This document shows, piece after piece, positions 10,265-48,648 of a stretch of 64,000 nt of DNA (its first letter is position 1; each line of letters starts with the position of its first letter). This stretch comes from Eledone cirrhosa. Its lineage: Eukaryota. The notes beneath the pieces are model-generated. The model saw only the letters and a program-made list of their open reading frames with translations. It was not told the origin of the DNA and ran no database searches. A program made the translations under genes and the position numbers. The stretch is from assembly GCA_964016885.1 (NCBI GenBank), contig OZ024742.1, positions 243,040,001 to 243,104,000 on the forward strand, read 5' to 3'.

Positions 10265-10313
10265 AGATAGATAGATAGATAGATAGATAGATAGATAGAT
10301 AGATAGATAGATA
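10265..10313. repeat. (GATA)n microsatellite at the 3' junction of Tx1 copy 1
   Basis: Directly visible. Confidence 0.95.
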
Positions 10314-13300
10314 ACTTTCTTTTTATTTGCCACCAGGGCATCAAAAAGTGGGACAAGTACAATGGGGGGAGTTTACATAAAAAGGCGTCCTCAATAAGGA
10401 GGAGGCAATAACAAAATATAAAAATATAAAATATAACAAACATAAATTGAATAACAAAATCCTCAATAGGGAGGAGGCGCCTTGGGGGGTCGCACACACC
10501 CCCCGAAAAAAGTGTGCAACCCTTCTCCTCAGGAGCACAGAGAGAGGGTGTTCCCTTGATCTTTCATCTTTCTCACCTACAGTCTGATGTAGAGTGAAGG
10601 CCCATTCACACGGGCCATTCTCGCCACTTTCACCCATCTTTCATAAAAACGGCTGGGGTGCAGCACCTCTCTCTCCATCCTGATCCTTCTTCCGAAATGA
10701 TATCGGAAGAAACGGACCAGTTGTTGGACAGAGAGAAAGGTGTCTGACCTCAGTCCTTTCAGACGCGTCCACCATACAACCTCTTTCACCATGGTTGTTA
10801 CGCACAGAAACACCGTTTTTGAAGAGGGAGGCGGCTTGATCGTTACAATAGACTCGGTGGTCAACCGTATCGGTCCCACCCGTGACAGCAGTCGTTCGAC
10901 ATAGCCCCACAGATCGGTAATGCCCGAGCAGTGTACCAATGCATGTGCAACGGTTTCCTCGTCGCACACGCATCTGGGACAGATCTTTTTCGAGGGGTCC
11001 CTATCCTGGCGCCCGTGTCTATAGAGCTTTTCTCGAACGGGGAGAGTCCCTCGGTAGCACTGCCAGGCCAGGGACCTCTGGAAGTTATCCATAGGTCCCG
11101 GGCTGAATGTCCTACCGAACAGGTTGGCCAGTTCGTTTTCCTCCATGCCTAGGGCTTCACCGAGGACGTCGTCGCACCTGCTAACCACCAGCCCTCTATA
11201 GAATGACGAGGTGGATTCTCCACTGACAGCCGGGTCCGCCTGCCAGAGAGCCGTGAGCGCATGGGCACACTCGGTGTACCAGGCGCCCAGTTTTCTCGGT
11301 CTTTGCTTGAACCAGGACTGCAGCTCGGTGAGCGAGACGATCCTGGGAAAGGCACGCCTCACGAACGGGGCCCACACCGGTTGACCGGTGAGGAATACCT
11401 GGAGGTGCCGTAGCCTTAATGCGTGTTTACGCATCATCAGCCACGGCATCCCCAGCCCTCCTTTCGAAGCGTGTTGATAGCAGATGGATCTCCTCATCAT
11501 AGGAGCCCGCTTCTTCCAAAGGAATTGGAAGAGTGCGCGCTCCATTTTGGCGTAGCGTTTCTCTTGGGCAAGGCACGACGGTCATGCGGTAGTAGATGAC
11601 GGACGCTATATAAGTGTTCGCCACCTCCGCCCGACCTTTCAGGGACAGTTTGCACTCGGCCCACTTCTGGGTCAGTGCAAACACCCTGTTCGTTACCTCG
11701 CCCCAGTTGATTTCCACCTGGAGGTCTGGTCCGAACCAGACCCCGAGCAACTTCACCGGGCCCTCCGTGCAGCGCCCGACGACGCCATCGGAGGGCATCG
11801 ATTTTCCCCTCCACGTGCCGAGTTGCAAACCGATCGACTTGTCCCGGTTCAGCTTAGCCCCTGTAAACCTTTCGTACTCCTCCAGTAAGGTGCCGATCGC
11901 CCCGATTTCCGAGGCCGTCGACACCATTACTGTTTCGTCATCGGCATAGGGCGACACAGCTTTCCGCGATCCCGGTTCCAACGGTATGCCTTGCAACAAC
12001 TCCAACTTCCGCAGCAGTGGCTCTAGAGTCATTACATACAGAAGGGAGGAGAGAGGGCACCCTTGTCGGATGGACCGTGCGATTTCGAACGGCTCCGAGA
12101 AGTAGCCGTTCACCTTGACTCTAGAGCAGATGCGGCTGCTGTGCATGGCAGTGATCCAGCCCCTGAAAACGGGTCCGAAGCCTGCCACCGCTAGCACCGC
12201 ATCCAGGTAACCATGGTCGACCCTATTGAACGCCTTAGATTGATCCAAGTTGATCAGGGCCCCACCAAAGCCGGGTTCGTTCCCAACCCTCTTTATGATG
12301 TAGCGCATGAGGTGGAGGTTGTCGTGGATGGACCTGGACGGGATAGCACATGTCTGCGCATCTCCCACCAGGTGGCCCACGACAAGCGCCAACCTCTTTG
12401 CTAACACCTTGGCCAAAATCTGTAACTCTGTATTTAGCAGAGTTATGGGACTGAAATTACTTATATCGTCCCCCTTGTTCTCGTCCTTCCTCACTAGCGT
12501 GACTACGCCCTTGGTCACAGCACAGGTAATTCTCCCGTTCTGTTGCCAGTTGCAGTAGATCACCTCGAGGAGATCGGGGGAACAAGTTCGGCATAGCTAG
12601 GTATAGTTCGTATGGAAGACCATCGAGACCCGGGGATTTGCGTTTGTCGCATTGGCTCAGCACGTTCTCTGTCTCAGCGGCTGAAATCGGCTCCTCGCAG
12701 GACTTCGCCTCCCTGTCCGAGAGACGCGGCAGGCCGTCGAGGTATGGACCGTAGTCCACTTCCCCAACCGGCTCCCCGTTCCTTCCGAACAATCTGGCAA
12801 AGTGCTTTTGAAAAGCCTCGCACATCTGCTTAGGTTCAAGGAACACCCGTCCATCCTGGTCTCGCAAAGACCGGATAGTGGATCTAATCACTCTTTTGGC
12901 TTCTGTCACGCGGGCCCAGCTAACAGCGTTGGTCCCCTCGTTTCCCAGAGCAAGTATTTTGCTTCGGACGATACAGCCTTCGTGTTTCGCGTCGAAGAAC
13001 TGGCCCAGGGCCGTTCTCGACGCTGGCACTCTGGCCACGTCGCCGCTTCTAATTGCCTATTCTACACTATCTACCAACTCCCTTTCCTTCCTATTTCTAT
13101 TTGAGGCTAACTCCTTACTAAATTCTATAGAGACTACTCTAATCTCTCTTTTGAGAGATCCCTACCACCTGCTGTTGACGATGGCGCCCGTCAACCGGTC
13201 CTTAACTAAAGTGCTAATCCTGTCCCTGTAAGCTTTACTTGCCGGTAAGGACAAGTTGAGCTTCCAGTAACCGGATCCCTGTCTATGCGTTCTGTCAAGG

Positions 13301-47802: not shown

Positions 47803-48603
47803 TTACCTCTCTGCGTCCCGGGTATCGGGCTGCACAATTTCCATTAGGGTGGGGGATGGGTTGTTGGGTGGGGTGGTGGTTTGTGGAAGTGTGGGGGCAT
47901 CAGTGTGTTGTGTGGTTGGGGAGCTTGGAGTTGTGAGGGTGTTTGGGGAGGGGGTGGGATAGTTTTTTAGGAGGACTCGGTTAATGGGCCCGACGCAGGG
48001 GGGACCCACGTCCTCTTTAAAATTGTTTTTTAAAGTTTTATAGGTGTCCTGTGGGGCCTTAATCATTTTGAGGTGGGGGAAATCCCCTGCCTGGGTGAAG
48101 TTAGGCCCTTGTGTTTTTATTAGATTGTTGTTGTACACAATGTTTAACAGTTTTTTGTTTCTTGTATTTATGTATGTGTATGCATGTTTTTGTTTTTGTG
48201 TGGTGTTTTTTGTTTGCTGTTGTGAGCTCTTTTGTGTTGGTGTCAGTGTTATGTTTTGGGGAGGGGTTTTTTTCATTTGTGTGTCTGAGGTGTGTTTTCT
48301 TTTTTTTCTTTTGATTGTGTGGAAGTGCTCCTCCTCGTCTGACGACGAACTAGGGTCATCTTCCGCGTTGGAGGGGAGGGGTATATTTTCGGGTTGTGTT
48401 TGCGGTACGGGTGTTTTGGAAATTGTTTTTGTTTTTTGAGTGGAGGGGATGGGTTGGACATTGTTTTGTTTTGGTTTGAGCTGTGGTGGTTGTTTTTGTA
48501 GTGGTTGTTGTGGTGATTGTGTTGGTTGTGCAGTTGTTGGTGGTGTGGGCAGGATTGGGGTTTTCTTATTAAGTTGGGGACAGACAGCCCTCAGGTGACC
48601 TCT
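47803..48603 (-). pseudogene. C-terminal half of Tx1 ORF1
   Basis: RGHLRAVCPQ...DAER*, matching ORF1 of copy 1; begins mid zinc knuckle at the (TAGA)n junction. Confidence 0.85.
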
Positions 48604-48648
48604 ATAGATAGATAGATAGATAGATAGATAGATAGATAGATAGATAGA
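48604..48648. repeat. (GATA)n at the 5' truncation point of Tx1 copy 3
   Basis: Directly visible. Confidence 0.95.

Follow-up and report, generated by a model that had tools for sequence, protein, structure and literature searches.

A Tx1-like LINE of Eledone cirrhosa that probably inserts into (TATC)n/(GATA)n microsatellites

According to the accessible text of the papers describing them, LINEs of the Tx1 clade use the microsatellites (TC)n, (TTC)n, (TTCC)n and (TTTC)n as targets (PMC4494074, PMC3812793). Kibi and Koshi of the teleost Tx1 clade insert into (TC)n and (TTC)n, respectively (PMC4494074, PMC3812793), and crocodilian Tx1 families, which stand near Kibi and Koshi in the tree of that paper, prefer (TTCC)n or (TTTC)n (PMC4494074). 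The preliminary description of the DNA analysed here had referred to such microsatellite specialists as an established kind of Tx1 element, in agreement with both accounts. Other families, i.e. Tx1L, Tx1-Mar and Tx1-9_AMi, are reported to target DNA transposons, and for their SINEU-3 passenger the same paper describes several insertions in tandem at a single site (PMC4494074). The endonuclease of Tx1L nicks its own target sequence-specifically, as far as described in PMC1950540. Beside these, Waldo and Mino target ACAY and AC and Dong targets TAA, with one Dong coming from a snail (PMC3812793). In the account of PMC4494074, a family is regarded as target-specific if more than 20% of its flanks are of one sequence type.

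From O. vulgaris, 13 recently active L1-Tx1 families are reported (PMC13282606). In the accessible text of the octopus and mollusc repeat papers, L1-Tx1 is mentioned without targets (PMC13282606, PMC10294476), that of PMC9115989 does not mention Tx1, and PMC2684134 contributed nothing further. A description of a Tx1 element targeting GATA/TATC was not found in the papers searched; Repbase, Dfam, Kojima and Fujiwara 2004 and the supplements of PMC4494074 lay outside this search and may list one.

Element copies in the window and their coding capacity

The window, i.e. the whole stretch of 64,000 nucleotides of E. cirrhosa that was analysed (contig OZ024742.1, positions 243,040,001 to 243,104,000 of the forward strand), contains six LINE copies on the minus strand, which self-alignment showed to be arranged head-to-tail in two arrays. 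Array 1 begins with (AGAT)12 (10265..10313, plus strand), which extends a degenerate (GACA/GAGA) run on its left and forms the 3' junction of copy A (10314..15943, minus strand). This copy is apparently full length (5.6 kb) and comprises a 5' UTR, ORF1, ORF2 and a 3' UTR with AATAAA; its ORF1 (about 15725-14000, minus strand) is frameshifted and carries a CCHC knuckle, and its ORF2 (13975-10577, minus strand) was recovered in five tblastn pieces with 2 stops. Copy A is separated by (AGAT)4 and decayed GATA/GGTA repeats (15944..16010, plus strand) from three minus-strand stubs, which consist of the 3'-terminal ~98 bp (s1, about 16011..16108), ~81 bp (s2, 16122..16202) and ~35 bp (s3, 16232..16266) of the element. 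Stub s2 is B-like, with 81% identity to the 3' end of copy B.

In array 2, copy B (41979..44023, minus strand) represents a second subfamily, is 5'-truncated inside the RT and contains stops and frameshifts. Its truncated 5' end is followed by (ATAG)12 (44024..44076, plus strand) and then by the 3' end of copy C (44077..48603, minus strand). Copy C is 5'-truncated within the zinc-knuckle codons of ORF1, possesses an intact ORF2 (47778-44341, minus strand; 1145 aa with APE, RT and zf-RVT) and joins (ATAG)11 at its truncation (48604..48649, plus strand). Altogether, five of the six copies are 5'-truncated and the 3' ends are aligned.

Copies A and C share 91% identity and copy B is 77-78% identical to both (self-alignment), which defines two subfamilies. 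The differences between B and C are distributed over codon positions 1/2/3 as 93/65/220, and this bias towards the third position indicates that two lineages diverged while active. Subfamilies 22% apart use a common target repeat.

Beside the six copies, a seventh piece (16444..16765, plus strand) consists of 320 bp of ORF2 with 92% identity to copy B. It lacks a 3' end, has no GATA on either side and abuts a 4.2-kb (GGT)n array, so that six of the seven family pieces in the window are flanked by GATA. The piece is situated between stub s3 and the (GGT)n array and could be a remnant, an inversion or an assembly problem. A twin-primed inversion of stub s3 is one possible origin: the orientation agrees, but ~180 bp of unrelated sequence lie between the two, and the piece is B-like whereas stub s3 is not clearly so. 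The preliminary description had listed six insertions from at least two subfamilies, all on the same strand and all with GATA at both junctions. Their positions, their junctions and the two subfamilies were borne out by the self-alignment; the uniformity of strand and repeat holds for the six copies, but not for the seventh piece.

The ORF2 product of copy C matched Exo_endo_phos, RVT_1 and, below the cut-off (E 4e-5), zf-RVT in Pfam. The APE motifs LNARG, E, Y, GDWN, YLDR and SDH align with those of relatives and are presumably catalytic. An Atlas search with ORF2 led to RT/endonuclease clusters, and the best PDB match was human L1 ORF2p (167 bits; R2 56-72 bits). With an APE, an RT closer to L1 than to R2 and a C-terminal Cys/His region, the element is an APE-type non-LTR retrotransposon of the L1 group. 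ORF1 of the Tx1 clade contains an RNA-binding region and a CCHC knuckle. ORF1 of this element, read from copy A, gave a weak zf-CCHC match below the Pfam cut-off (E 0.0067), and its Atlas look-alikes (0.90-0.93) were zf-CCHC and ZCCHC3-type RNA-binding clusters, which are not Tx1-specific. A splice-donor-like G|GTAAGT overlaps the ORF1 stop codon in C (about 47795-47805, minus strand) and A (13995-14005, minus strand), and another lies within the 5' UTR of copy A (about 15905-15920, minus strand).

Several other repeats were observed in the window. Broken retroelement-like reading frames at 6220-7737 (minus strand), 31296-31610 and 50859-51356 (plus strand) have no Pfam match above the cut-off; by their motifs we take them to be Penelope-like and RTE-like. 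A SINE-like dispersed repeat of ~200-350 bp occurs in many copies (8129, 19037, 27325, 29616, 30349, 34725, 39550, 39754, 40693, 63045-63611), among them a tandem pair at 39550-39975. Long inverted repeats, MITE- or foldback-like, surround microsatellites at 22764-23356, 24098-24449, 28922-29409, 54415-54705 and 54763-55686, and a 39-bp minisatellite with about 100 copies occupies 56119-60214.

GATA/TATC repeats at the junctions

All six 3' ends, including those of s1-s3, show AATAAA, a few bases and then TATC units, and a poly(A) tract is present in none of them. GATA units were found at 12 of 12 junctions, with just 1-4 perfect units at the stubs and at the 3' end of copy B. Four of the six 5' tracts may be the tail of a neighbour; the informative ones are only those of copy C and stub s3. 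At copy C, the truncation point joins 11 repeat units. The flank beyond 48650 was tried as a further family member, but in the 450 bp past this repeat nothing matched the family significantly (blastn low-complexity hits only; tblastx best E 0.22). The claim that a copy cut in the middle of ORF1 meets the repeat at 48603/48604 with no other element end beyond it thereby stands for these 450 bp. On the 5' side of stub s3, two GATA units and one variant unit lead over to (GAAA)n, past which no further element follows, and array 1 as a whole lies inside a compound GACA-GATA-GAAA run. A target-site duplication cannot be read inside a microsatellite.

In a census of perfect microsatellites, the window contained 101 AT, 32 AC, 10 AG and 8 AGAT tracts, the latter making up 3% of the microsatellite bases. 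All 8 AGAT tracts of at least 12 bp lie at or between element ends, and these ends with 60 bp on either side cover 1.5% of the window. A GATA tract of this length away from an element does not occur in the window. The earlier remark that other simple repeats are far commoner was correct in this respect; at the AG tracts, for instance, no copy was found (0 of 10), and the unit at the junctions is TATC.

The 3' end of copy B is flanked by a dispersed host repeat (41384..41975) which terminates in (ATAG)3. A LINE-free paralogue of this flank (49584..50170; 80% identity) possesses 2.5 GATA units where copy B attaches, and copy B is attached exactly where the homology of 41384-41979 with 49584-50170 ends. 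Since a GATA run is already present in the LINE-free paralogue, this comparison supports insertion into a pre-existing repeat. On the other hand, every GATA tract of at least 12 bp touches an element, and the paralogue has 2.5 units versus 11 at copy C, so that the element may also lengthen the repeat. The dispersed repeat itself (~600 bp; 41384-41979 and 49584-50170) carries (CT)n in its interior, is bounded by a hairpin on one side and by TCTA units on the opposite side, and presumably resembles a non-autonomous Helitron-type element. Only two copies occur in the window, none of them at array 1.

Truncation joints, proposed mechanism and alternative explanations

Parts of copy C were found in 20 public runs (17 organism labels, 16 studies), six of which contained half of its words or more; none of the matches listed was an RNA dataset. 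Contigs of four runs (X1, X4, X6 and X7) were aligned to copy C plus ~20 repeat bases on each side. Among the joints listed (15 of 331 in total), 11 connected the element interior to the 20-bp repeat, and 10 of the 12 between-letter joints listed (88 in total) likewise ran from the element interior into the repeat. The comparison listed 24 of 2016 loose ends, which do not give the overall share of non-GATA flanks. In run X1, 5' truncations at 16 or more different positions, at distances of 95-1852 nt to the 3' end, were joined to the repeat, with contig depths of 19-78, all in the orientation of the window and, among those listed, without a change of strand. All listed repeat joints come from X1, possibly the same source as the window; X4, X6 and X7 showed none among the rows listed. 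Such joints are not mimicked by the element itself, in which no 3-unit GATA run occurs. With 20 bp of repeat, however, a genomic tract and the tail of a neighbouring copy look alike. The summed contig depth of X1, which is not a copy number, fell from about 4e5 over the 3' part of ORF2 to 1-3e4 over ORF1.

Contigs from X4 and X6 match copy C up to 48603 and continue for 774 and 186 letters without a repeat match, which shows that 48603 is a true truncation. These contigs, from two other organism labels, are ~99% identical to copy C (4/891, 2/296 and 3/767 differences). Such near-identical copies under other labels represent either a very young subfamily common to close relatives or mixed samples.

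The letters at the joints are informative as well. Nine joints had inserts of 1-3 letters; seven were in repeat phase and showed microhomologies of 3, 3, 1, 4, 2, 3 and 4 nt. With scoring against the reference copy C, and not the letters of each contig, the mean for the 7 in-phase joints was 2.9 nt versus 0.60 under the null (0 of 28,571 simulated sets), and P was about 5e-5 when two out-of-phase joints were scored zero (n=9). For all 16 joints, the best-phase match was 2.19 versus 1.14 under the null (0 of 10,000 sets). The bases after the joints were not more GATA-like than the background (4.4 vs 4.4). An excess of microhomology is expected if cDNA joins repeat DNA which is already there.

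Taken together, the copies belong to a LINE of APE type, which is likely a member of the Tx1 clade and probably inserts strand-specifically into pre-existing (TATC)n/(GATA)n. Domain content, orientation, the repeat at both junctions, independent truncations joined to the repeat and the excess of microhomology were observed directly. The strand-specific targeting proposed in the preliminary description is supported by the joints of X1 in one orientation with their microhomology and by the short GATA run in the LINE-free paralogue. During insertion, the ORF2 endonuclease would nick the GATA strand, and reverse transcription would be primed at this nick on an RNA ending shortly past AAUAAA, perhaps with a small number of UAUC units by which it pairs with the primer. 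Synthesis of the cDNA would usually stop early, and the truncated cDNA end may be joined to the upstream repeat via annealing of 1-4 nt or with a few extra bases. Short annealing and direct joining are both described as routes of LINE 5' joining in the accessible text of PMC4245944. As each insertion would leave repeat on both sides, the site stays open as a target, and later copies of different ages would stack head-to-tail in one orientation.

It is also conceivable that the (TATC)n tail is generated by the element itself, through slippage or read-through, and that insertion occurs chiefly in very short seeds or in tails left by earlier copies. Most of the long GATA tracts would then have been produced by the element. 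The contact of each of the 8 AGAT tracts (at least 12 bp) with elements, the absence of poly(A) from 6 of 6 3' ends, the four 5' tracts out of six that adjoin the 3' end of a neighbour and the mere 2.5 units of the LINE-free paralogue fit this explanation, and the contig joints cannot exclude neighbour tails. It is nevertheless considered improbable, since the 11-unit tract of copy C and the 5' tract of s3 have no element beyond them and array 1 lies inside a compound microsatellite; moreover, recognition of TATC would still be required, so that this explanation differs mainly in where the target comes from and less in the targeting itself. Somewhat less doubtful, but tentative and on the whole unlikely, is a further reading, in which an octopod Tx1 lineage with independent (TATC)n targeting enters GATA seeds of 2-3 units, some of them provided by transposon ends, lengthens them and so makes most GATA microsatellites of the host, each being a new landing site in a self-feeding loop.

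Two further explanations are very improbable. If the true target were the end of another transposon, such as the dispersed repeat beside copy B, the microsatellite would be incidental. Copy B indeed begins precisely where 41384-41979 and 49584-50170 cease to be homologous, and Tx1 families targeting DNA transposons are known (PMC4494074, accessible text); but array 1 has no such repeat, the window holds two copies only, and the contig joints pass directly into pure repeat. Equally improbable is that the LINE is untargeted and has (TATC)n as its tail, its arrays having arisen by template jumping, tail recombination or assembly error. The fragment on the opposite strand is family sequence outside GATA, and microsatellite tails of LINEs are described as common in the accessible text of PMC9115989. 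Neighbouring copies, however, stem from subfamilies 22% apart, which accords neither with one RNA pool nor with duplication, and truncated ends meet the repeat at 16 or more positions, with more microhomology than expected and at contig depths of 19-78. An untargeted LINE is thereby largely refuted.

Relatives and comparison with known systems

The closest relatives of B and C by RT identity are P0001 (NCBI protein, 77%) and a protein of Argonauta hians (GAB1597330.1, 67%). The Argonauta protein, the closest homologue bearing a name, points to an octopod as the likely host. Compared with ORF2 by phmmer, fish TX1-named and 'pol-like' proteins scored 256-336 bits, human L1 167 and plant L1 118-143. 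The fish 'pol-like' proteins BAC82605, BAC82606 and BAC82609 fall within the range of 256-336 bits; they come from species of the Kibi/Koshi description and we assume that they belong to these families, and the literature search found no paper naming them as such.

An RT tree was calculated from 29 rows chosen from 74, a selection that contained neither animal L1 nor verified Kibi/Koshi sequences and in which the 'TX1' names of fish proteins are automatic annotations. B, C, P0001 and the Argonauta protein formed a clade (support 100/99), the sister of which is a group of ENA sequences (100/99; hereafter the ENA group). Both belong to a larger clade of 21 rows that also comprises the fish TX1-named proteins (98/96). 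Forced grouping with plant L1 and a Phallusia (tunicate) pol-like protein, a group named after the tree was seen, was rejected (p-AU 0.012), and a forced sister position to the fish/turtle group was not (p-AU 0.138). Judged from bit scores and this tree, the family likely belongs to the Tx1 clade, as had been proposed. It stands outside the fish clade and does not nest among the microsatellite-targeting fish families, whose references are presumed to be Kibi/Koshi; its closest clade is the ENA group. It is possible from this branching that its targeting arose independently of Kibi and Koshi. The ENA sister clade is large, with clusters of 385-732 members and 39-45% ORF2 identity.

Scans of viral contigs and of prokaryote genomes revealed no related loci. 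In a metagenome scan, the best 80 of 530 relatives were all distant (24-43% in the best segment), and one of these 80 contained a 3-unit GATA run, away from the contig end; these relatives are too distant to inform on the target. Among the distant L1/Tx1-like loci from metagenomes, two terminate in tracts (L031, 4174-4214, and L033, 4285-4346) of (ATTG)n and (AT)n, respectively, and are possibly other microsatellite-linked families.

Through this family, the few microsatellite-targeting APE LINEs gain a non-pyrimidine unit and, probably, a host among the molluscs, and the position of the family on a branch apart from the fish families offers a natural comparison for changes of APE specificity. 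Targeting of this kind would alter the reading of L1-Tx1 insertions in O. vulgaris, and what serves as a GATA marker in such animals may be the junction of a LINE.

Like Kibi and Koshi, as far as the accessible accounts describe them, the family is an APE-RT LINE of Tx1 type inserted in a microsatellite. Its target unit TATC, however, contains A, whereas the units of Kibi and Koshi are pure pyrimidine, and its RT is 34-36% identical to those of the fish Kibi/Koshi candidates (the BAC proteins), stands on a separate branch and comes from an octopod host. With the crocodilian Tx1 families, compared by description only, it shares the preference for a tetranucleotide, but not the unit. A sequence-specific APE is known from the families Tx1L, Tx1-Mar and Tx1-9_AMi and is predicted here; their target is described as a transposon sequence, whereas that of the family in the window is probably a simple repeat. 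Waldo and Mino of the R1 clade and Dong of the R4 clade are likewise described as microsatellite-targeting non-LTR elements, but belong to other clades and use other units. In comparison with these systems, the element probably represents a new target and a new host group for a known strategy rather than a new mechanism.
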